From an uncultured Bacteroidota bacterium (lineage in GTDB: Bacteria; Bacteroidota; Bacteroidia; Bacteroidales; P3), in assembly GCA_900545215.1 (NCBI GenBank), contig UQXW01000001.1:61794-125793 (forward strand): a stretch of DNA of 64,000 nucleotides, given 5' to 3'. This document shows positions 39,342 through 61,368 of the stretch, piece after piece. The position numbers were made by a program, and so were the translations under genes. How positions within the stretch are numbered: position 1 is the first letter of the stretch; each line of letters begins with the position of its first letter. The notes beneath the pieces were generated by a model. The model saw only the letters and a program-made list of their open reading frames with translations. It was not told the origin of the DNA and searched no databases.

Positions 39342-40784
39342 ATGTCTGAATCATTAAAAAATAAGACCGTTAAAGGTACTGTTTGGAGTTCCTTGGATGC
39401 CTTTTTAGGGCAGGGGATAACCTTTCTTGTCGGACTTGTACTTGCTCGTCTCTTATCTCCGGAAGAATACGGTCTTATAGCGATAATAACCATATTTATC
39501 TCCGTATTCAACAGCATTGTCGACAGTGGGTTCAGTAATGCCTTGATAAGAAAACAAGATGCAACGGAGGTAGATTATAATACGGTTTTCTATACCAATC
39601 TCGTCATAAGCGCAGTTCTATCGACAGCACTCTTCTTCGGAGCTCCGTTGATAGCGGATTTTTTTGCAAGACCGCAACTGACACCTTTGACACAGGCGAT
39701 GTCATCTATTGTGGTGATAAATGCTTTCTCGATAGTTCAGAACATACGTCTTACAAAAAACATAGACTTTAAGACAAAAACCAAAGTATCACTGATTGCG
39801 TCCGTCGCCAGTGGCATTATCGGTATAGCAATGGCGTTTAGCGGCTTTGGCGTTTGGTCTTTGGTCGCTCAACAAATATCAAGGCAATTACTTAATTCTG
39901 TTTTTCTTTGGGTCTTCAACAAGTGGCTTCCGAAGTTGATTTTTTCTTGGAAGAGTTTCAAAGAGATGTTTGACTTTGGTTGGAAACTGCTTGTATCGGG
40001 ATTGATAAACACAATTTGGACGGAAATATACCAAGTAGTAATAGGTAAATTCTATCAGCCGCAAACATTGGGACAGTATACAAGGGCTCAGCAGTTCTCT
40101 TCAATATTTTCCAGCAATCTTACATCGATTATTCAAAGGGTAAGCTACCCTGTGTTGAGTCAGTTGCAAGATGATAAAGAAAGATTGAAATCAGGCTACA
40201 AGCGAATTATAAAAATAACAATGCTGGTGAGCTTCGTACTTATGCTCGGACTTGCAGCAATAGCCAAACCGATGATATTGGTTCTTATAGGAGCCAAGTG
40301 GTTACCGGCAGTTCCTTTTCTGCAAATATTGTGCTTTAACATGATGTTATACCCTCTGCATTCCATAAACTTGAATATGTTGCAAGTGCAAGGACGTAGC
40401 GATTTGTTCCTGAAACTTGAAATAGTGAAAAAAATGATCGGCGTATTGCCTTTGTGTTTGGGAATATTCGTGAATATATATTACATGTTGATAAGTAGCG
40501 TATTTGTAGGCTTTTTCTCCTATTACCTGAATGCTCGATATTCCGGACCATTCCTTAATTACAGCATAAAGGAACAAGTCAAAGATATAATCCCGGGCTT
40601 TTCAATAGCACTGTTAATGGCATTACCGGTGTACGCAATATCATACCTTCCGCTTAATCCGTTTGTTCTTTTGCCCATACAACTATTGGCAGGTTTGTTG
40701 ATAGTTCTTGCATTGTGTGAGAAAATCGGATTGGAAGAATATAAAGAAATCAAATCGATAGTATTAGGTTTGTTAAAGAAATAG
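39342..40784 (+). CDS. wzx: Wzx-type oligosaccharide flippase (MOP superfamily)
   Basis: 480 aa with ~12-14 TM segments and an N-terminal VWSSLDAFLGQGITFLVGLVLARLL typical of polysaccharide biosynthesis (Wzx) proteins. Confidence 0.8.
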   Translation: MSESLKNKTVKGTVWSSLDAFLGQGITFLVGLVLARLLSPEEYGLIAIITIFISVFNSIVDSGFSNALIRKQDATEVDYNTVFYTNLVISAVLSTALFFGAPLIADFFARPQLTPLTQAMSSIVVINAFSIVQNIRLTKNIDFKTKTKVSLIASVASGIIGIAMAFSGFGVWSLVAQQISRQLLNSVFLWVFNKWLPKLIFSWKSFKEMFDFGWKLLVSGLINTIWTEIYQVVIGKFYQPQTLGQYTRAQQFSSIFSSNLTSIIQRVSYPVLSQLQDDKERLKSGYKRIIKITMLVSFVLMLGLAAIAKPMILVLIGAKWLPAVPFLQILCFNMMLYPLHSINLNMLQVQGRSDLFLKLEIVKKMIGVLPLCLGIFVNIYYMLISSVFVGFFSYYLNARYSGPFLNYSIKEQVKDIIPGFSIALLMALPVYAISYLPLNPFVLLPIQLLAGLLIVLALCEKIGLEEYKEIKSIVLGLLKK

Positions 40785-43054: not shown

Positions 43055-44134
43055 ATGAAACAATTAGAAATACATGGTTACAAATCGATTAAGGATTTGG
43101 TTCTTCCGCTGAGAGAAATCAATATTCTGATTGGCGCAAACGGAAGCGGTAAGAGCAACTTGCTGTCATTCTTTGTATTTTTGAAAACTTTCTATAATAG
43201 AAATCTTCAAGAGTCTGTGGCTTTATCAGGAGGCATGGATAAGTTTTTGTATATGGGGCGTAAGATTACCTCTGAGATAAGTATAAAATTATTATTCCCG
43301 AATAATGCCTATTCTTTTACACTTGTTGCCGGTGAAGACGCTTTTGTGATAACCAAAGAGGGACTATGGTATGAGGCTAATCCGCACATGCCTAATCCTA
43401 TTGATATAGCATCTTTTTCCAAAGAGTCGGGATTACAATATGCCACGGTACCCCGCGCAGATTATATCCGTAATTATTTAAGTGAACTAAAGAAATATCA
43501 CTTTCATGATACGAGTAAGAACTCACCCTTTACAAAGGTGTCAAATGTAAAAACAGGAGGTCATTATTTGCTTCCGCAAGGAGAAAATTTGGCTGCTTTT
43601 CTATACACTGTTAGTCGGCAGACTCCAAAGAATTACAATTTGATTGTTCAGACTATACAAACCGTTGCCCCTTATTTCAGAGATTTTTATTTGAAACCTG
43701 ATGAGAATGGGAATTTGTCATTAAAATGGCAGGATAAATACAGCGAGAACATTTATGGAGCAACCGATTTATCAGATGGAACAATTCGTTTTATTGCCTT
43801 GACAACCTTATTTATGCAACCCCAATTACCGCAGACCATCATTTTGGATGAGCCGGAATTGGGACTTCACCCTGTAGCCATTGCCAAATTGAGCGGCATG
43901 ATAAAATCGGTTGCAGCCAAGGAGTGTCAAATCATTGTAGCAACGCAATCTACCGATTTGATCAGTTACTTTGATGCAGAGGATATTATTACAGTGGATC
44001 AAATTAATGGCGAAAGTATCTATAAGCGACTTTCTTCTGACGAGTTAGAAGATTGGTTGGAAGAATACACGATAGATGAACTGTGGAAACGGAATATGCT
44101 TCATAATGGGCAGCCGAATAATCAAGAGTTATGA
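43055..44134 (+). CDS. AAA_21/ABC-type (OLD/AbiLi/RloA-like) ATPase
   Basis: Walker A GANGSGKSN; signature-like LSDGTIRFIALTTLF; Walker B IILDEPELGLHP; H-loop ATQS. Confidence 0.8.
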   Translation: MKQLEIHGYKSIKDLVLPLREINILIGANGSGKSNLLSFFVFLKTFYNRNLQESVALSGGMDKFLYMGRKITSEISIKLLFPNNAYSFTLVAGEDAFVITKEGLWYEANPHMPNPIDIASFSKESGLQYATVPRADYIRNYLSELKKYHFHDTSKNSPFTKVSNVKTGGHYLLPQGENLAAFLYTVSRQTPKNYNLIVQTIQTVAPYFRDFYLKPDENGNLSLKWQDKYSENIYGATDLSDGTIRFIALTTLFMQPQLPQTIILDEPELGLHPVAIAKLSGMIKSVAAKECQIIVATQSTDLISYFDAEDIITVDQINGESIYKRLSSDELEDWLEEYTIDELWKRNMLHNGQPNNQEL

Positions 44135-44787
44135 GCAGAGTAATTGTTATTTGCGAAGGCGAAACCGAACGAGAATTTTGCCAAACGCTCCTTTTCGGAT
44201 ATTTTGCGAGCATTGGTAAATATATAGAAGCACCATTGATAAAGCGCTCGCATGGCGGAATCGTTCGTTGGGAAATATTGAAAAAGCAAATTGAAACAAC
44301 TCTACGCAAAGAACAAGATGCAATAGTAACACTGCTTATTGATTATTATGGGTTGCATGAAAAGCACTATTTTCCGGGGTGGGACGAAGCTGAAAAAATT
44401 ATAGATAAAATAAAACGTGTATCCTATCTGGAAGATACTATGAGGCAGGATATAGATGATAGTATTCGTTATCGTTTTATTCCTTACTTGCAGTTACATG
44501 AGTTTGAAGCTCTGCTTTTTTGTGATGCGGAGATATTTAAAAATATGATTCCCGAAAAAGAATTGATAGGTCTTCAGGAATTGCAGACCGTGATTGATAG
44601 TAATCCCAATCCCGAGTTAATTAACACAAGGAAAGAAAACACGCCCTCTCATAGATTGTCGCGTATAATAAAAGGTTATAATAAAATCGTTTACGGAAAT
44701 CTGATAGCTGAACGTATTGGTTTGTCAACCATGCGTTCAAAATGTCTTCGATTTAATAATTGGTTGAATGAATTGGAAAAAGCATAA
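44131..44787 (+). CDS. DUF4276/RloB-like protein (TOPRIM-like N-terminal CEGETE motif), partner of the upstream ATPase
   Basis: The start overlaps the ATPase stop (ATGA). N-terminal RVIVICEGETEREF and a later acidic LLIDYYG motif. Length is 218 aa. Confidence 0.65.
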   Translation: MSRVIVICEGETEREFCQTLLFGYFASIGKYIEAPLIKRSHGGIVRWEILKKQIETTLRKEQDAIVTLLIDYYGLHEKHYFPGWDEAEKIIDKIKRVSYLEDTMRQDIDDSIRYRFIPYLQLHEFEALLFCDAEIFKNMIPEKELIGLQELQTVIDSNPNPELINTRKENTPSHRLSRIIKGYNKIVYGNLIAERIGLSTMRSKCLRFNNWLNELEKA

Positions 44788-47906: not shown

Positions 47907-48866
47907 ATGAAGCAAGAAATAAAGATACAACCCATAGGCGGCTATTTTGAATTGGAGTTACCAACGTTTCCGGAGTATCATTCGCAGGCAATAGCACTTA
48001 ATAGCGGACGTTTTTGTTTGGAATATATACTGAGATGTAAGCAGTATAAGAAAATATATATACCGTATTATACCTGCGATTCCGTTTTGGAACCGATAGT
48101 AAAACTCGGTTTACCGTATGAGTTCTACCATATAACAGAAGAATACAAAATATCGGAAACGATTTCTCTTTCAAAAGGTGAAGTATTGTTATACACCAAC
48201 TATTGGAGATTACAGAATGATTACTGCGAGGAATTGGCAAAGCAATACGGAAAGCAGTTGATTTTTGACTGCACACAAGCCTTTTATTCCAAACCGATAA
48301 GAGGGATAGACGCTTTCTACAGTTGTAGAAAATTTTTCGGAGTTCCTGATGGAGGTTATCTTTATACCGATGTCAAGGCGAATTTTGAGATAGAACAAGA
48401 TGAATCATATACCAGAATGGATTCATTGATAAAGCGTATCGACCTTTCACCCGAAGCCGGTTACCAAGACTTTCACAAGGCAAGTGCAATGTTCCATGAT
48501 ATGCCTGTTCGGAAGATGTCCGAATTTACCAAGCGAATGATGCAAAGCATAGACTATGAACAAGCCGCCAAGCAACGTATATCAAATTACAACGCACTGC
48601 AACAAGCCCTTGGTGGCAGAGAATTATGCAGAGGAGAAGTCCCGATGATATTCCCCTACATATCGGAACAAGGGGCAATTCTTCGTAACCATCTGATACA
48701 ACACAAAATCTTTGTAGCCAAATATTGGCAAAACGTATTGGAATGGACAAAAGAAGATGCAGTGGAAACAACAATGGTAAATAATATACTCCCCCTCCCA
48801 ATCGATCAACGATATGGTAAGGAGGATATGGAAAGAATAATAGATTTGATAAAGATATGGAAGTAG
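47907..48866 (+). CDS. divergent DegT-like (aminotransferase-fold) protein, function unknown
   Basis: Weak DegT-family landmarks in the right order: DCTQAF (matching EDaAqA), SCRKFFGVPDGGYLYTD (matching SFHxxKxxxxGEGG), and a C-terminal ILPLPID. The start was chosen at the internal Met. Confidence 0.35.
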   Translation: MKQEIKIQPIGGYFELELPTFPEYHSQAIALNSGRFCLEYILRCKQYKKIYIPYYTCDSVLEPIVKLGLPYEFYHITEEYKISETISLSKGEVLLYTNYWRLQNDYCEELAKQYGKQLIFDCTQAFYSKPIRGIDAFYSCRKFFGVPDGGYLYTDVKANFEIEQDESYTRMDSLIKRIDLSPEAGYQDFHKASAMFHDMPVRKMSEFTKRMMQSIDYEQAAKQRISNYNALQQALGGRELCRGEVPMIFPYISEQGAILRNHLIQHKIFVAKYWQNVLEWTKEDAVETTMVNNILPLPIDQRYGKEDMERIIDLIKIWK

Positions 48867-49345
48867 CAATTAGACCATTGAGAGAAGAAGATGCATATAC
48901 TTCCGTCAAGTGGAGAAATGATCCGGAAGTGTTCAAATTTACGGGCAACACCTACAAAAATGAAATCAAGATTGAGAATGAGTTGGAATGGATTCATAAA
49001 GTGGTTGCCAATTCAAATGATTACCGTTGTGCAATTCTTGCTGATGGCGTTTATGTGGGAAATATTTATTTGACAGACATTGATGGTAAAGCAGCTAATT
49101 ATCATATCTTCATCGGCAACAAAGAATATTGGGGTAAGGGCGTTGCAAAGAAGGCATCGCTTTTGATACTTGATTACGCTTTCAACACCTTGAAACTCGA
49201 AACAGTCAAACTCAAAGTCCGCAAGGAAAACACATCAGCTTTTATGCTCTACAAGAAATTAGGCTTTGAAGTAGAGAACGAAGAAAACGTTTGGATATCG
49301 ATGGAGATAAAAGCATATAAACGGCAGCCTACGTGTATAAGTTGA
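48857..49345 (+). CDS. GNAT-family N-acetyltransferase
   Basis: IFIGNKEYWGKGVAKKASLLILDYAF and YKKLGF motifs. Confidence 0.85.
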   Translation: MEVAIRPLREEDAYTSVKWRNDPEVFKFTGNTYKNEIKIENELEWIHKVVANSNDYRCAILADGVYVGNIYLTDIDGKAANYHIFIGNKEYWGKGVAKKASLLILDYAFNTLKLETVKLKVRKENTSAFMLYKKLGFEVENEENVWISMEIKAYKRQPTCIS

Positions 49346-49526
49346 TATTCAACATCAAGGCAATAGGTGAAACATTGCAAGCAATGCAACAAAACGAGTA
49401 AACCGCCGTTTAATTGAATAGTCAGCATAGATTGAAATCATGGATTTATTACAAGTTATGCATATTTTGAGAGTTCTGTGTTTTAGAGAATTGTTTGCTT
49501 GTGAGTAAAGTAAATTGTAAAGAGCC

Positions 49527-49940
49527 ATGGTAAGCAAGTTGAAGAATAAATCAGAGATATTGTATGATACGGCGAAACTATTGCACGATAAAAGTTTGTA
49601 TGTAGGTGTTGCACATGCTGCTTATTATAGTTGTTATCAGCTGTTGAAACATATTTGGCTTCATTCCATGCTTAAGTCTGAGGAAGAACTCACTAAAAAT
49701 ATCAGCACAGGGAAAATAGGTTCTCATGAATATTTGCTGAATGAAATTGTGAGTTATATAGAAAAATATCCATCTAAAACCGGTGGGAAAGGCGACTATA
49801 GAATAGTGAGGGATAATATGTTACAGTTAAAACGCCTTCGAGTGAAGGCTGACTATAAAGATGATGATTTTTGCTGTAAGGATAGCAACAGTTCTATTAC
49901 ATTGTCGGATAAAATATTGCCGATACTAAGACGTTATTGA
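49527..49940 (+). CDS. HEPN-fold protein (classic PF05168-like helical pattern), putative RNase/toxin
   Basis: An N-terminal helix (LYDTAKLLHDKSLYVGVAHAAYYSCYQLLKHIWL) resembling the HEPN hydrophobic core, and a C-terminal KRLRVKADYKDDD resembling the HEPN R…(R/A)(D/Y) motif. Confidence 0.45.
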   Translation: MVSKLKNKSEILYDTAKLLHDKSLYVGVAHAAYYSCYQLLKHIWLHSMLKSEEELTKNISTGKIGSHEYLLNEIVSYIEKYPSKTGGKGDYRIVRDNMLQLKRLRVKADYKDDDFCCKDSNSSITLSDKILPILRRY

Positions 49941-49943
49941 TGT

Positions 49944-50408
49944 ATGAGAGCAAAAGAGTTTGTTATTGAAGCTTTGAAAGAACTTCTTGGAAAAGTTACT
50001 ACAGTGAAAGTGCGATATGAATTTGATGCAAATGCACTTGTTCATGTTGTGGAAGTTCTGCCCGAAGAGGTGTATTCTTCAAATAAAGAATACCTTGGAT
50101 GGGAAGAACAACTATATCACGACTTTGTGAAACAATTTCCAAGAGAGAATATATGTTTCATTACCGATGATGCACTTGTCGGAATTAAGAATGCCGAGTT
50201 TGAGCAACAAGGAGAGAATTATAGCATTATATGTATTCCTACATATAAATACTGCGAGAATGGCAGACCATGCTCTTTACTTTCGATAGACAGTAGTATT
50301 AGTAATTTTCAGCCGTTGAATTATTGCAATATGGAGAAGAATGGGCAACATGCTTCATTTGACGCAGTGGTATTGCCAACGTGTTCGGATTTATTACAAG
50401 CAGCATAA
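49944..50408 (+). CDS. hypothetical protein (no recognisable domain) between the HEPN and SecB-like genes
   Basis: 154-aa ORF, 4 nt after the HEPN stop and 7 nt before the SecB-like start. Confidence 0.4.
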   Translation: MRAKEFVIEALKELLGKVTTVKVRYEFDANALVHVVEVLPEEVYSSNKEYLGWEEQLYHDFVKQFPRENICFITDDALVGIKNAEFEQQGENYSIICIPTYKYCENGRPCSLLSIDSSISNFQPLNYCNMEKNGQHASFDAVVLPTCSDLLQAA

Positions 50409-50414
50409 AGTATT

Positions 50415-50825
50415 ATGGAAGACAAAACAAAATCGGGATTTGCAATAACAGGATTGATATTGTTGGAAAGCAATTTCAAACGAGAGAATAATGTGCAGTT
50501 CGTTGAAACTGTGCAAAACAATATGCATATAGAGACAGAGGTTCAGACGAAAGATGCTTCCATCATGGTGCTTGAAACAGTAACAATAAGCCAGAAATAT
50601 GAAAAGATGGAACAAGTATCTATCATGGTAAAGATGGCAGGGGTTTTTGAACGTGTCGGAGAAAGCAAATTGGAAGACTTGGAACAGTTCGGAAAGATAA
50701 ATGGAGCTGCCATTATTTTTCCCTATATTAGGGAACATATCACTAATTTATCTCTCAAAGCAGGAATTCCACCCATAATACTTCCACCTGTTAACTTTAC
50801 CAAGATGCAGGGAAATAACCGTTGA
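50415..50825 (+). CDS. SecB-like chaperone
   Basis: Aligns along its length with E. coli SecB, especially GAAIIFPYIREHITNLSLKAGIPPIILPPVNF against [29 protein letters not shown]. Confidence 0.8.
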   Translation: MEDKTKSGFAITGLILLESNFKRENNVQFVETVQNNMHIETEVQTKDASIMVLETVTISQKYEKMEQVSIMVKMAGVFERVGESKLEDLEQFGKINGAAIIFPYIREHITNLSLKAGIPPIILPPVNFTKMQGNNR

Positions 50826-50841
50826 CTACAAAAAATACTGA

Positions 50842-51153
50842 ATGAATATGGGAGCAAGTTATAATAACATTATTGAAAGAATAGATGAACACCTAAAAAA
50901 TAGTGGACGAAGATACTATTCGGATTTTTACATCGGGATAACAAACGACCCTGAGCGTAGGCTTTTCGATGAACATAACGTTAAGAAAGATTATATGTGG
51001 TGGATTTATTCCAAAGCTGATAATATTGAAATCGCAAGAAAGGTTGAGAAACACTATTTGGATAAAGGAATGCGAGGTGGAGACGGAGGTGGAGATGATA
51101 CATCAGTGTATGTATATTGTTATACCGTATCTCCAACAACGATAGAGTATTGA
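50842..51153 (+). CDS. small GIY-YIG nuclease-domain protein
   Basis: RRYYSDFYIGITNDPERRLFDEHN (YIG-T-…R-…H-N) and the downstream WWIY…ARKVEKHYLDKG (catalytic Glu and Lys). Confidence 0.55.
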   Translation: MNMGASYNNIIERIDEHLKNSGRRYYSDFYIGITNDPERRLFDEHNVKKDYMWWIYSKADNIEIARKVEKHYLDKGMRGGDGGGDDTSVYVYCYTVSPTTIEY

Positions 51154-51154
51154 C

Positions 51155-51883
51155 ATGGATAAGGATAATTTGTTGACTAGAGCTTCAGAAGTAGCTCTAA
51201 CAGGTGAAAATAGTGAAATATCTCAAGATGATAATGAGACAAGAGAACGGTTTGTTGTTTTCTTGGATATTATGGGGTTTAAGGATATCGTGAGAAGTAA
51301 TCCGAAACATGATGAATTAAAAAAGCGTTTAGGAGAATTAAATGACAGTATAAACGAACTCATTAAAGAAGAAGAGGCTACCTCAATAATAGAGCTTGTT
51401 CAGTTTTCTGATAGTATCATTCTTTTCACAAAGAACAATACAAATGAACAACTTGTGAAATTAGTATCTATCGTTTGTTTGATTATGCAGGAAGCTATTG
51501 AACTTAAATTTGCAATGAAAGGAGCAATAGCAAAGGGTGTACTCACTTGTGATTCTAACAAGAAAGTTTATTTCGGACAAGCACAGATAGATGCCTATCT
51601 TCTTGAAGAAAATGTATGGTATTACGGTATAGTCGTTCACCATTCTGCACAGAATGATGTGGAAAAAATAAATAAGAATTATATTTCTACCTTAGAACTT
51701 CCCATGAAGACTGGGTGGATTAAACATTGCGAGTTATCTTGGTATGCTTATAGTAGCGATAAGGCTAATGATATAAAAGAGCGTATTTCAAATATAAGAT
51801 ACACCGTTTCCGATGCACCTCGAAGATACATAGACAATACCGAAGCTGTGATGAAAGCCTTTGAGGAAAAGAATGGTAGGTAG
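51155..51883 (+). CDS. class-III nucleotidyl-cyclase-like (CHD/GGDEF palm-fold) protein with degenerate catalytic residues
   Basis: FVVFLDIMGFKD (cf. FADIVGFT, metal Asp 1); FSDSIILF (cf. iGDaYM, Asp 2); KGAIAKGVLTCDS (cf. RiGIHtGpvvaG); YFGQAQIDAYLLE (cf. GdtVNlAsRmE, with N replaced by D and R by L). Confidence 0.5.
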   Translation: MDKDNLLTRASEVALTGENSEISQDDNETRERFVVFLDIMGFKDIVRSNPKHDELKKRLGELNDSINELIKEEEATSIIELVQFSDSIILFTKNNTNEQLVKLVSIVCLIMQEAIELKFAMKGAIAKGVLTCDSNKKVYFGQAQIDAYLLEENVWYYGIVVHHSAQNDVEKINKNYISTLELPMKTGWIKHCELSWYAYSSDKANDIKERISNIRYTVSDAPRRYIDNTEAVMKAFEEKNGR

Positions 51884-52002
51884 AGCAAAAGAAAAATAAG
51901 AATAAAAGCAAGAAACACTTGGCGTAAACAGAGTGCAGTTAATTCAAACCATTAACAAGTAGCGAGTAAAGTCTTTTCTCGTTTTCATACATAAACATTA
52001 AG

Positions 52003-53541
52003 ATGCAGAAAAAAAATGGTGATACTATAAATAAAAAGAAGATAGCTATTAATACAATTATTGTCTATGTTAGACTTTTTATAACTACAATAATAGGGCT
52101 TATATCTACACGGCTTGTTTTAAGAATATTGGGTGTTGCTGATTATGGTCTGTACAATGTTGTAGGTGGTATCATTGTTGTCTTGAATGTGTTTTGTGTG
52201 GCTATGCATACAACCACTAGACGTTTCATAAATGTTGAAATGGGCAAGTTGGACGGAAATGTCAATAAGGTATTCAATATATGCATGAAGTTACATATAC
52301 GAATTGCTGTAATCTTTTTTTTGTTGGCAGAACTGATAGGACTTTTGTATATATATAATTATCTGAATGTAGAGGAATGTAGACTTTCTGATTGCGTGTT
52401 TATATATAATATTTCTTTAATCACTTCTTGTTTAGGATTGATTAATGTTCCTTATCAAAGTACACTTGTTGCTCGTGAGCGATTTATTGATATTGCTCTT
52501 ATAGATATAATTACAAAAATAATTCTATTCGGAATGATAATCCTACTCTATATTCGTGGAGGGTATGCATTACGTCTTTATGCAATATCAATGTGTGTTT
52601 CTGTTCTCTTGTCGTTGATATTGTATACTCTTGGTTGTTATAGGAGATATTCTTCGGATGTATGCTTGAAAAGATATGTAGATAAAGATTTGACAAAAGA
52701 AATGCTAAGATTTAACGCTTACACAACAATTGGAGCATCTTCATATATGATAAGAGCACAGGGAGCGAATATTATAATCAATTTATTCTTTAATACTATT
52801 GTGAATGGAGCCTATGCAATAGCATATCAAATCGAAAGCTATTTAATTTTATTTATTAGTAATCTAACAACAGCTTCTGCTCCTCAAATTACAAAGAGTT
52901 ATGCTAATGGGGATATTGATGCGTCAATGAATTTGGTAATGCGAATGAATAGATTGTGTATACTAGTAATGATGTTTATTTGCTTTGCGGCTATTGTAGA
53001 ATTGCCTTTTTTGTTGAAATTATGGTTGGGAGTAGTTCCAGAATATGCAGTATTATTCGTCTCTTTGACGATAATTAGTGCATTTATTCGCTCTTTGGGA
53101 GAAGGTATTCCCCCATTGGTACAAGCGTCAGGAAGGATAAAGTGGTTTCAGATTTTTGGCTCTATATTTACTTTCTTAGATATACCATTTGTAATTATAT
53201 TCTTTGTTTTGGGATTTCCTCCACAAACTATGATAATCGTGTTTTGTGTTTCTTCTATTTGTGGACGTATAGTTAATATCTATTTGTTGTATCGGATATT
53301 GAAGTATGATGTATTATTGTTTTTGCGAGTATCCTATTTTCCAATTATTAAAATTCTCCCATTTTTAGTAGCGTACTATGTTTTGTATTCACGATTTGAA
53401 CTTACAACAAATTTATCTCATGTTATTGGCTTATTGAGTTCTGTTATTCTTGCTGGAATTATAATCTTTTTCTTGGGCTTTGATGAGAAAGAACGTCTTT
53501 CTATATTCAATACACTTAAAACAAAATTAAAAACAAGATAA
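52003..53541 (+). CDS. second Wzx-type oligosaccharide flippase (MOP superfamily)
   Basis: 512 aa with ~14 TM segments and an N-terminal ININTIIVYVRLFITTIIGLISTRLVLRILG typical of Wzx proteins. An A8 tract directly follows the ATG. Confidence 0.75.
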   Translation: MQKKNGDTINKKKIAINTIIVYVRLFITTIIGLISTRLVLRILGVADYGLYNVVGGIIVVLNVFCVAMHTTTRRFINVEMGKLDGNVNKVFNICMKLHIRIAVIFFLLAELIGLLYIYNYLNVEECRLSDCVFIYNISLITSCLGLINVPYQSTLVARERFIDIALIDIITKIILFGMIILLYIRGGYALRLYAISMCVSVLLSLILYTLGCYRRYSSDVCLKRYVDKDLTKEMLRFNAYTTIGASSYMIRAQGANIIINLFFNTIVNGAYAIAYQIESYLILFISNLTTASAPQITKSYANGDIDASMNLVMRMNRLCILVMMFICFAAIVELPFLLKLWLGVVPEYAVLFVSLTIISAFIRSLGEGIPPLVQASGRIKWFQIFGSIFTFLDIPFVIIFFVLGFPPQTMIIVFCVSSICGRIVNIYLLYRILKYDVLLFLRVSYFPIIKILPFLVAYYVLYSRFELTTNLSHVIGLLSSVILAGIIIFFLGFDEKERLSIFNTLKTKLKTR

Positions 53542-60107: not shown

Positions 60108-60491
60108 ATGATACAGCTTATTCCTACAAAACGCGTACTAAATTGTAATGGTGTCAATAAAGAGGTGTATCTTTTGAAGCTCAATCCTGTTCACCCGATG
60201 GATTTTGATGTTTTGGCAAAGCTGATTGCCGAAAGGACGACTTTGACCGAGTATGAGGTGGAGTTCGTTTTGAGCGAGTTGCAGACGGTTATGGTTGAGA
60301 ATTTGGAGTTGGGTCGCGGGGTGAAGTTCGGAAAACTCGGCACGTTTGAGCCCTCGCTTAAAGCCGAGGCGGTGGAAAATGAACAGGAACTCAATCTTTC
60401 AACCGTGAAGAAAGTGAACATCATATACAAACCGTCGCTTGAAATAAAAAAGGCTTTGAAGAAGTTGAGAATGAGAATAAACAGGAAGTAG
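60108..60491 (+). CDS. Bacteroidota HU-related DNA-binding protein (HU_rel family)
   Basis: Size and the …LAKLIAERTTLTEYEVEFVLSELQ…LGTFEPS… pattern match the histone-like HU_rel family. First of three tandem paralogs. Confidence 0.7.
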   Translation: MIQLIPTKRVLNCNGVNKEVYLLKLNPVHPMDFDVLAKLIAERTTLTEYEVEFVLSELQTVMVENLELGRGVKFGKLGTFEPSLKAEAVENEQELNLSTVKKVNIIYKPSLEIKKALKKLRMRINRK

Positions 60492-60557
60492 CTGTTGGCA
60501 AAAAGCCAATAGTCAAAAGTATAAAGAATAATAAATCAATAAAAAAAGGAGGTAAGT

Positions 60558-60962
60558 ATGGCATTTGTGTACAAAAAGAAAAAGCAACTTGTTACTTTGG
60601 GGCAAAATCCCGGTGAGAAGTATGTTGTTGCAACGGCCAATCAGGGCAGAGTTACGGATGCAGAGCTGAAGGAGTTTATACGGCGTAATTCCACTCTTTC
60701 GGAGCAGGATGTCAATCTGCTTTATCATTCATTTGCGGAGGTAATAGAGGAAAATATGAGCCTCGGAATGGGTGTGAATCTTAAAGATTTGGGTGTGTTC
60801 ACGCCCAATTTCCGAACAAAAGGGAGTGCTTCTTTGGAGGAGGTCGGTGTGGAAAACATTGAAAAGGTTGTGGTAAATTTCCGTCCGGCAACCAAGCTCA
60901 GAGAGAAAATAGACAACGCTCCTGTAAAAGAAACTCGTAAGTTTGACCTTAAACACGTGTAG
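60558..60962 (+). CDS. Bacteroidota HU-related DNA-binding protein (paralog 2)
   Basis: LGQNPGEKYVVATANQGRVTDAELKEFIRRNSTLSEQDVNLLYHSFAEVIEENMSLG…LGVFTP. Confidence 0.7.
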   Translation: MAFVYKKKKQLVTLGQNPGEKYVVATANQGRVTDAELKEFIRRNSTLSEQDVNLLYHSFAEVIEENMSLGMGVNLKDLGVFTPNFRTKGSASLEEVGVENIEKVVVNFRPATKLREKIDNAPVKETRKFDLKHV

Positions 60963-60966
60963 CCTT

Positions 60967-61368
60967 ATGATACAGTATACAGTTGAAAAGAAAAAAGTTC
61001 TGAACGGTAGAAATCCGGGTGAGGTAAAGTATTATCCGAAGATAGTGAGAGCGACTACCATGACTACCGAAAAGGTGGCTGCTTTGTTGGAAGAGAGAAC
61101 GACAATCAGCAGGGGCGAAGCATATGCGTTTTTGCAGGCTTTTTCAAAAGCTGTAACGTTTTATGTGACCGAGGCGTTTGTTGTGGAGGCGGAGGGTTTG
61201 GGAATTTTCACGCCGTATATCAATGCCGAAGCCGTGGACACTTTGGAGAAAGCGACCGAAAAAACTATTAAAAAGAAAGGTGTGCGTTACCGTCCGACCA
61301 AAGCGATGGAAGCAAAGTTGAATCAAGTGAAATTCCAGAAAGCAAATTTGGACGTAGATCATATTTGA
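60967..61368 (+). CDS. Bacteroidota HU-related DNA-binding protein (paralog 3)
   Basis: VLNGRNPGEVKYYPKIVRATTMTTEKVAALLEERTTISRGEAYAFLQAF…LGIFTP. The start was moved to the internal Met to avoid overlapping paralog 2. Confidence 0.7.
   Translation: MIQYTVEKKKVLNGRNPGEVKYYPKIVRATTMTTEKVAALLEERTTISRGEAYAFLQAFSKAVTFYVTEAFVVEAEGLGIFTPYINAEAVDTLEKATEKTIKKKGVRYRPTKAMEAKLNQVKFQKANLDVDHI

Follow-up and report, generated by a model that had tools for sequence, protein, structure and literature searches.

Here, we describe a block of five small genes in a 64,000-nucleotide (nt) stretch of DNA from an uncultured Bacteroidota bacterium (contig UQXW01000001.1, positions 61,794 to 125,793 of the forward strand), which we refer to as the window. 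The five open reading frames (ORFs), named O1 to O5 in their plus-strand order, span positions 49527-51883 and lie between a GNAT gene and a flippase gene of a polysaccharide locus. In our view, and with a rough probability of 0.65, the block consists of two independent modules of a selfish or defence type that are co-inherited as one unit in mosaic Bacteroidaceae capsule loci. Of these, module A would be a HEPN-type toxin-antitoxin-chaperone (TAC) system made up of O1 (HEPN family), O2 (a two-part putative antitoxin), and O3 (SecB-like), and module B the pair of O4 (a small GIY-YIG protein) and O5 (a class III nucleotidyl-cyclase fold). What we propose about the function of the block is drawn from sequence, predicted structure, and gene context. 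A first-pass annotation of the same DNA had treated all five genes as a single system and had not recognized a TAC among them, neither of which held up, as O1-O3 and O4-O5 each recur alone in many unrelated places, and O1-O2-O3 displays every TAC trait that can be read at the sequence level.

Distribution of the five genes

The chance juxtaposition that the first-pass annotation had allowed for is not what we find, as the five genes also occur together elsewhere, though only in Bacteroidaceae polysaccharide loci. However, complete sets are rare. A species-level scan (one genome per species) returned 60 loci with an O5 relative, just one of which, in a Bacteroidaceae metagenome-assembled genome (MAG), contained all five genes, while O4-O5 was present without O1-O3 in 29 and the rest, which are more distant, had O5 only. 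Similarly, all five genes were present in two of 80 metagenome loci found with O4. Distant relatives of O5 (~47% identity) have an O4 relative (36-63%) directly upstream and no O1-O3, and, conversely, relatives of O2 and three diverged relatives of O1 (46-53% identity) sit in trios of a HEPN gene, a gene for ~150 residues, and a SecB gene, with no O4-O5. In fact, we encountered O1-O2-O3 without O4-O5 in eight further contexts, with the gene order unchanged and the genes either overlapping or only a few nt apart. Among these, the neighbor is a type IIG restriction-modification enzyme in one case and a DNA methylase in another, other copies lie between lpxA and dnaE or have HpaII/HNH genes on one side and an RloB plus AAA_21 pair on the other, and seven viral contigs from IMG/VR carry the trio as well. 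More conspicuously, one capsule locus (L003) has kept O1-O4 and carries a HEC-02A/HEC-02B pair (5e-138 and 1e-42; L003:6969-8485) in place of O5. Moreover, synonymous divergence (dS) between the window and the loci L023/L031 amounts to ~0.9-1.3 for O1-O3 and to 0.27-0.35 for O4-O5.

These data bear directly on the rival reading that all five genes make up one integrated chaperone-assisted defence system, in which, for example, the TAC senses infection and the GIY-YIG and cyclase-like proteins act as a second effector arm. Such a system would account for the contiguity of the genes in at least eight differently composed polysaccharide loci and in the species-level MAG, as well as for the common block boundaries and the O3-O4 gap of only 16 nt. 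Nonetheless, with both halves found far more often alone, with eight independent O1-O3 contexts that lack O4-O5, with O5 swapped for HEC-02, and with halves that differ in synonymous divergence and swap alleles independently, we regard it as improbable. Still, the two-module reading has its own difficulties. Within polysaccharide loci, the five genes stay together down to an O2 identity of 58%, and there may be cross-talk between the two modules in these loci. Likewise, O5 occurs without O4 in 31 distant species loci; it therefore has no need of O4 and is probably not toxic alone in those lineages. Finally, the 103 neighbor proteins of O4-O5 in the species genomes, as judged from Pfam and PADLOC, are mostly ordinary, the defence-related matches being limited to one each of Septu and PARIS plus some ABC-type ATPases, with clear systems at 2-3 of 31, so that a defence-island context is a weak argument for O4-O5 in the species-genome set.

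O1-O2-O3 as a putative toxin-antitoxin-chaperone module

Described TACs have in common the gene order toxin, antitoxin, chaperone (PMC3581621), and a variable and unstructured C-terminal extension (ChAD) is the defining trait of their antitoxins (PMC5105189, PMC9519451). Counterparts to these features can be seen in module A, where a SecB-family gene follows O2 on the same strand after 6 nt, O3 comes third after O1 and O2 in all loci examined, the order of the three genes is constant in the capsule loci and the eight other contexts, and O2 bears a variable C-terminal extension that is predicted to be disordered. On these sequence traits, we class O1-O2-O3 as a putative TAC module with a new toxin/antitoxin pair, the architecture itself being known.

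Foremost in this assignment is O3 (50415..50825, plus strand, 136 residues), which matches Pfam SecB (PF02556) at 9e-13, with 48.8 bits against a curated cut-off of 26, and this bears out the SecB fold that had been called from the sequence. The best match of O3 in the defence databases is PADLOC PD-T4-9_C (4.4e-17), that is, CmdC, the chaperone of E. coli CmdTAC (PMC9519451).

O2 (49944-50408, plus strand, 154 residues) has no match in Pfam, NCBIfam, or PADLOC and divides into two parts. Residues 1-95 (49944..50228), predicted to be an alpha/beta domain and the putative toxin-neutralizing part, are conserved in all homologues. In contrast, residues 96-154 (50229..50408), the putative ChAD element and degron, are hypervariable, differ in length, cannot be confidently aligned, and have a predicted local distance difference test (pLDDT) score below 50, as expected for a disordered tail. 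An Ala-Ala C-terminus is found in all O2 homologues and in every context; in HigA1, the ChAD extension includes a ClpX degron with Val-Ala as its last residues (PMC8165232).

Our strongest evidence from within the block is a comparison of alleles that ties the tail of O2 to O3. In L029 and L030, the copy of the block matches the window at 97-100% identity over the leader upstream of O1, O1 itself, the O2 N-terminal domain, and O4-O5, but the identity falls to 45-87% at ~50150-50850 (L029:5200-5900), which corresponds to the O2 tail plus O3. Here, dS is 0.13 for O1 together with the O2 N-terminal domain, 2.2 for the O2 tail, and 1.25 for O3. Judging from these values, the O2 tail and O3 have been exchanged as one unit between alleles, and this joint exchange is as expected if the chaperone recognizes the tail, with the specific pairing of the putative ChAD tail and O3 seen at the level of co-inheritance.

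For O1 (49527..49940, plus strand, 137 residues), the HEPN assignment made earlier stands for the family, with the window protein alone below threshold for Pfam HEPN (0.23). Among 16 aligned relatives with 45-74% identity to O1, PF05168 is matched by 13 (best 7.9e-6) and HEPN_AbiV by four, and one relative carries the NCBI name "HEPN domain-containing protein". Against diverged copies of the block, the ratio of non-synonymous to synonymous divergence (dN/dS) of O1 is 0.13-0.17. The family shares the motif R103-x-R105-x3-D109-Y110, which reads R103-L-R105-V-K-A108-D109-Y110 in O1, and the same "R..DY" form appears as "RNRSDY" in the solved HEPN structure 9xbd, of which 9xbc is the Tyr-to-Phe variant. 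It is also 9xbd to which a larger O1 profile gave a weak match in the PDB (E 0.15), while a single-sequence PDB search and a profile from the small O1 alignment returned nothing meaningful.

The known TAC pairs are HigBA, MqsRA, HicAB, and CmdTA, and neither O1 nor O2 matches any of these families in Pfam, NCBIfam, or PADLOC. O1/O2 would thus be a new pair, with membership in the class still possible by architecture. Similarly, our literature search for a HEPN-type TAC yielded no description of one in the library that could be searched. In comparison with HigB1-HigA1-SecB(TA) of M. tuberculosis and with HigBAC, MqsRAC, and CmdTAC (PD-T4-9) of E. coli, O1-O2-O3 shows the same three-gene order, a SecB-family third gene (with CmdC as the best PADLOC match), a variable and disordered C-terminal extension on the presumed antitoxin that ends in small hydrophobic residues, inheritance of tail and chaperone as a unit, and a sporadic, mobile distribution that includes prophage-like contigs. 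What differs is that the toxin candidate O1 belongs to the HEPN family and is not a HigB, MqsR, HicA, or CmdT ADP-ribosyltransferase, that O2 has no helix-turn-helix (HTH), HigA, MqsA, or HicB domain and no significant match, and that the hosts of O1-O3 are Bacteroidota.

With the type VII HEPN/MNT system (HepT-MntA), the module shares a HEPN-fold first partner and the conserved Tyr of the R..(H).Y region. However, O1 has an Ala at the catalytic His and so no Rx4-6H toxin motif, and O2 lacks the GS...DxD nucleotidyltransferase motif that marks the active site of the MNT antitoxin, which makes neutralization through AMPylation unlikely. Moreover, a chaperone and a ChAD tail are both missing from HEPN/MNT itself, whereas O1-O3 has the SecB-like O3 and a putative ChAD.

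Some of our observations speak against a toxin-antitoxin role. Canonical HEPN RNases carry an Rx4-6H motif with a catalytic His; the position of this His is occupied by Ala108 in O1 and by a His in none of the 16 relatives, and its absence leaves the toxicity and RNase activity of O1 uncertain. Furthermore, the O2 N-terminal domain gave no significant structure or sequence match, also when searched as a single sequence against the PDB, and its predicted model is of moderate confidence only. A missing His and an O2 N-terminal domain without significant likeness to known antitoxins would suit an alternative in which O1-O3 is no toxin system at all, with O1 as a non-catalytic HEPN adaptor or nucleotide binder and O3 as a dedicated folding chaperone of O2, and so would those copies that are flanked by housekeeping genes (lpxA and dnaE, for example). 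Given the sporadic and mobile distribution, the viral contigs, and the restriction and abortive-infection neighborhoods, along with an architecture that is exactly that of a TAC, a tail that ends in a degron, and a chaperone closest to CmdC, we think this alternative quite unlikely.

As a TAC, module A would operate with O1 as a HEPN-fold toxin, its presumed target being RNA, and with the folded N-terminal domain of O2 neutralizing this toxin. The disordered tail of O2, prone to aggregation and proteolysis and ending in the Ala-Ala degron, would be held and protected by O3, a role that we infer from the anatomy of the tail and its co-inheritance with the chaperone. If the chaperone were titrated, e.g., by a phage structural protein, O2 would be lost and O1 would arrest the cell. 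In E. coli, HigC senses a lambda tail protein (preprint 10.1101/2024.02.24.581848), and, by analogy, titration of O3 may be the trigger of module A.

The O4-O5 pair

O4 (50842..51153, plus strand, 103 residues; gene callers start it at the ATG at 50848, which gives 101 residues) matches Pfam GIY-YIG at 1.9e-6, with 28.5 bits against a cut-off of 22.6. The GIY-YIG call of the first-pass annotation is borne out by this match, though for residues 29-49 only, and so short a stretch (21 residues) tells somewhat against our reading. Across 67 distinct sequences of the O4 family, conservation reaches at least 95% at Y26, Y30-I-G, R40, H45, and E69 and likewise in a GMxGxxGGG loop and a VYCY strand, and the first Tyr lies unusually near the YIG motif. 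O4 appears in this way to have the superfamily core with Tyr, Tyr, Arg, (His), and Glu, and the conservation of these catalytic residues makes a working GIY-YIG active site plausible. PDB searches with O4, both as a single sequence and as a profile from a small alignment, gave nothing meaningful.

More telling is what lies downstream of O4. In a metagenome scan of 80 loci seeded with O4, the partner was O5 in 35 and, 3-6 nt downstream, a DUF1883-TIR protein in 29 (PDC-S66 1e-72; ThsB-like 1e-46), with a DUF3800 pair (PDC-M04A/B; PDC-M04A 2e-77) in two, other or unassigned partners in ten (including an IetA-like AAA protein and a weak PDC-M36A match), and contigs that end too soon past O4 to tell in the remaining four. 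The arrangement of O4 relatives (47-59% identical to O4) directly upstream of PDC-S66 (DUF1883-TIR) or PDC-M04 (DUF3800 pair) is like that of O4-O5, though the TIR or DUF3800 partner is unrelated to O5. As with DUF1883-TIR, the DUF3800 gene and an AAA gene begin 3-6 nt past the O4 relative, and PDC-S06 and WYL genes are present in these islands. O4 is therefore a small protein that pairs promiscuously, from the upstream position, with nucleotide-processing proteins of a defence type, and this makes a defence or toxin-antitoxin-like role of O4-O5 likely. In PADLOC, PDC-S66 is listed as a single-gene candidate and there is no model for the small GIY-YIG gene. A protein of ~252 residues past O4 in other loci, considered as a divergent O5, was rejected as such (hhalign probability 0.5%), as it is the DUF1883-TIR protein.

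The DUF1883-TIR arrangement is frequently preceded by AAA_13 (PDC-S06) and WYL/WCX genes. As a recurrent four-gene array, this is seen at L143:2-4059, with an AAA_13 ATPase (PDC-S06, 3e-190), a WYL/WCX regulator, an O4-like GIY-YIG protein, and DUF1883-TIR (PDC-S66, 1e-72), and similar arrays are found in L144-L149, L158-L169, L186, and L190.

O5 (51155..51883, plus strand, 242 residues) has the topology of a class III cyclase homology domain, followed by a two-helix C-terminal extension specific to its family. A profile of the O5 family reaches the cyclase Rv1625c (E 0.003), with FLDIMGF aligned to FADIVGF, and the two metal-binding Asp residues (D38 and D86) are invariant in the family. Both features, the full domain topology and the Asp pair, are shared with class III cyclases, including Pycsar PycC. 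In contrast, the positions of the substrate-specifying Lys/Asp (or Glu/Cys) and the transition-state Asn/Arg pairs are aliphatic, with Val/Ala at 82 and Val/Leu at 138 for the former and the invariant Ile145 and Leu149 for the latter, positions 138, 145, and 149 being mapped onto Rv1625c from conserved motifs. O5 also differs in its C-terminal helical extension and in an invariant polar set of its own (K43, K122, D146, E152, H162, H163, H191, R215, S219, D220, R223, and D227). The first-pass annotation had called O5 a degenerate cyclase, and although four canonical residues are indeed replaced, the term is too strong for a protein whose metal-binding Asp residues and about a dozen polar residues are invariant. 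With these two sets of residues in mind, we read O5 as a probable divergent enzyme or nucleotide binder with a different activity, and not as a decayed cyclase.

With 6327 representatives at E <= 0.001 in a 50%-identity library, the O5 family is large and extends over Bacteroidota, Akkermansia, Dehalococcoidia, Nitrospirae, and others. O5 itself has no match in Pfam, NCBIfam, or PADLOC, a single-sequence PDB search gave nothing meaningful, and a scan of viral contigs contained no O5 relatives. In longer relatives, a Pfam scan revealed a TPR fusion only and no informative domain.

An active O5 that makes a cyclic nucleotide, with O4 as the nuclease effector, would amount to Pycsar-like signaling. 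Here, the invariance of both metal-binding Asp residues is in favor, and one could speculate that the conserved GMxGxxGGG loop of O4 binds phosphate. However, unlike in Pycsar, there is no cyclic-nucleotide-binding effector beside O5, as no such domain was found in O4 or the neighboring genes, and O5 has no match to the PADLOC Pycsar models even at E <= 1. Moreover, by the motif alignment with Rv1625c and by inference from it, the canonical Lys, Asp, Asn, and Arg correspond to Val82, Val138, Ile145, and Leu149, O5 is frequently solo, and O4 pairs equally with non-cyclase partners. Such signaling has, on balance, little likelihood. As for CBASS, the palm fold of O5 is that of class III rather than Pol-beta, and none of the five proteins has a PADLOC CBASS match. 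The initial exclusion of Pycsar, CBASS, and classical HEPN/MNT appears sound, and a literature search for a GIY-YIG plus cyclase system turned up nothing relevant.

Module B is an uncharacterized pairing built on a large unannotated family. Because the O4 family elsewhere pairs with TIR and DUF3800 defence proteins, an abortive-infection or toxin-antitoxin-like two-component system is the most likely reading of O4-O5, albeit with low mechanistic confidence. The two genes would be translationally coupled, and O5, as a nucleotide-processing partner, would control the O4 nuclease or be controlled by it.

Three further observations concern this pair. A second, independent allele swap is evident at window positions 51150-51550 relative to L004, L006, and L010; it affects the first ~130 codons of O5 (the N-terminal half of its cyclase-fold domain), where identity is 39-75% against ~92-100% elsewhere in the block. 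Some O5 relatives (P0044 / L016:5001-5870) have a C-terminal HTH_Rpn_C (PF27070) extension and follow Wza/Wzc-type export genes, their O4 partner being 136 residues long with a stop codon that overlaps the O5 start by 4 nt. Lastly, at a glycan-locus end on a Parabacteroides-type contig (L020:4621-7810), O4-O5 is immediately followed by Septu (PtuA 4e-226, PtuB 8e-35), and O5 seems to be frame-shifted or shortened there (205 residues plus a 30-residue ORF).

The block within capsule loci

In the window, the gaps from O1 to O5 are 3, 6, 16, and 1 nt, so that the earlier figures of 4, 7, 17, and 1 nt were right for the last gap and off by one for the first three. Five tightly packed ORFs on one strand between a GNAT and a flippase gene, as had been described, agree with the ORF positions and with Pfam matches on both flanks. 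On an identical metagenome contig, the GNAT gene (48857-49345) matches Acetyltransf_3, Acetyltransf_4, and Acetyltransf_1, and the flippase gene (52003-53541, plus strand) matches Polysacc_synt. Position 49346 is the first base past the GNAT stop codon, the non-coding stretch ahead of O1 is 181 nt long (49346-49526), and the spacer between O5 and the flippase gene is 119 nt. The AT-richness reported for the region is likewise evident, with a GC content of 0.34-0.37 in the segment vs. 0.45-0.49 at 1-36 kb of the window. In comparison with three diverged block copies, dN/dS is 0.09-0.48 for each of the five ORFs, and many homologues were found for every one of them, which together indicate real genes under purifying selection and not chance ORFs. 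No name is attached to any of the five proteins in the source databases. In keeping with what the bare sequence had suggested, no role in glycan synthesis can be recognized in the five genes, the gene content is of a toxin-antitoxin or defence type, and the domain guesses (HEPN, SecB, GIY-YIG, and cyclase palm) turned out correct by Pfam, family, or fold comparison.

As a discrete unit of 2.5-2.7 kb, the five-gene block recurs in Bacteroidaceae polysaccharide loci, with an identical O3 protein in at least eight differently composed loci and with whole-block copies in further loci whose O2 is only 58-70% identical. By blastn, homologous sequence begins at window positions 49178-49382 and runs to 51870-51873, beyond which the flanks are unrelated on one or both sides. 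Included in the block is a conserved leader (49199..49526, plus strand) that consists of the 3'-terminal ~147 nt of the GNAT gene and the 181-nt intergenic region and is 96-100% identical in L004, L010, L029, and L030. At L004:4779-4925, where another gene lies upstream, the 3' end of the window GNAT gene (49199-49345) is a non-coding remnant upstream of O1, and its presence in loci with other upstream genes indicates that this gene remnant moved with the block. The Bacteroides TAnnTTTG promoter box is absent from the conserved leader, and no terminator-like site on the plus strand was found within the block or after O5; transcription probably runs into both modules from the promoter of the capsule locus.

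Such a setting raises the alternative that the block serves the capsule locus, either as an addiction module against its loss or switch-off or as a recombination anchor that shuffles the locus halves, with phage defence not being primary. It would fit a block that keeps the same position between sugar-modification genes and flippase-glycosyltransferase genes while its flanks differ on either or both sides, that travels with a GNAT remnant, and that lies on the strand of the locus with neither a terminator-like site nor a consensus promoter of its own, and a few O4-O5 pairs elsewhere are at glycan-locus ends as well. On the other hand, most copies of either module are found elsewhere than in polysaccharide loci, some of them on viral contigs or next to restriction systems, and a service to the capsule locus is compatible with the two-module explanation rather than exclusive of it. 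As a primary role, we consider it unlikely, if somewhat less so than the other alternatives above.

Several other features lie around the block in the window. A HEC-01 pair, in which an AAA_21/AAA_15 ATPase gene (359 residues) overlaps that of a DUF4276 protein (218 residues), lies ~5 kb upstream (43055-44787, plus strand); it is a PADLOC candidate defence pair (HEC-01A 4e-133, HEC-01B 1e-75) and, next to the block itself, the second insert of a conflict type that this polysaccharide locus carries. Two flippase-type genes, at 39342-40784 (Polysacc_synt_3, 2e-96) and 52003-53541 (Polysacc_synt), are part of one unbroken plus-strand run, and the polysaccharide locus of the window may in fact be two fused or mosaic loci. 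At 60108-61368 (plus strand), past the glycosyltransferases, there are two to three tandem paralogues of HU-HIG (HU-like DNA-binding) proteins and then a UDP-GlcNAc 2-epimerase gene, and the HU-HIG cluster also closes the related loci L006, L008, and L009.

Implications

Bacteroidota are among the dominant bacteria of the gut, and their defences against phages have been charted poorly. If module A is a TAC, chaperone-controlled toxin-antitoxin systems would extend to a HEPN-type toxin and to Bacteroidota, and the natural allele swaps of tail plus chaperone make the specificity of chaperone addiction directly testable. Module B, for its part, points to a large unannotated family of more than 6,000 cluster representatives that may combine a cyclase fold with non-cyclase chemistry, and to a small nuclease whose gene repeatedly precedes those of TIR and other defence proteins. 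Conflict modules at a fixed site of the capsule operon, with HEC-01 5 kb upstream, suggest that surface-glycan variation and intracellular immunity are linked.

We would take this further only tentatively, with the doubtful but possible joint idea that the O4 family is a small, widely shared GIY-YIG nuclease subunit whose nucleotide-processing partners are interchangeable and that Bacteroidaceae capsule loci are phase-variable defence islands. Were the first part true, O4 with O5, DUF1883-TIR, or DUF3800 as its partner would stand for a widespread kind of two-gene antiphage system that is as yet undescribed, with O5 performing a non-cyclase nucleotide reaction. Were the second part true, the HEPN-type TAC, O4-O5, and the HEC-01/HEC-02 pairs would be co-transcribed with the capsule genes, and a capsule switch would then also switch intracellular immunity, or else the toxin would punish the OFF state.

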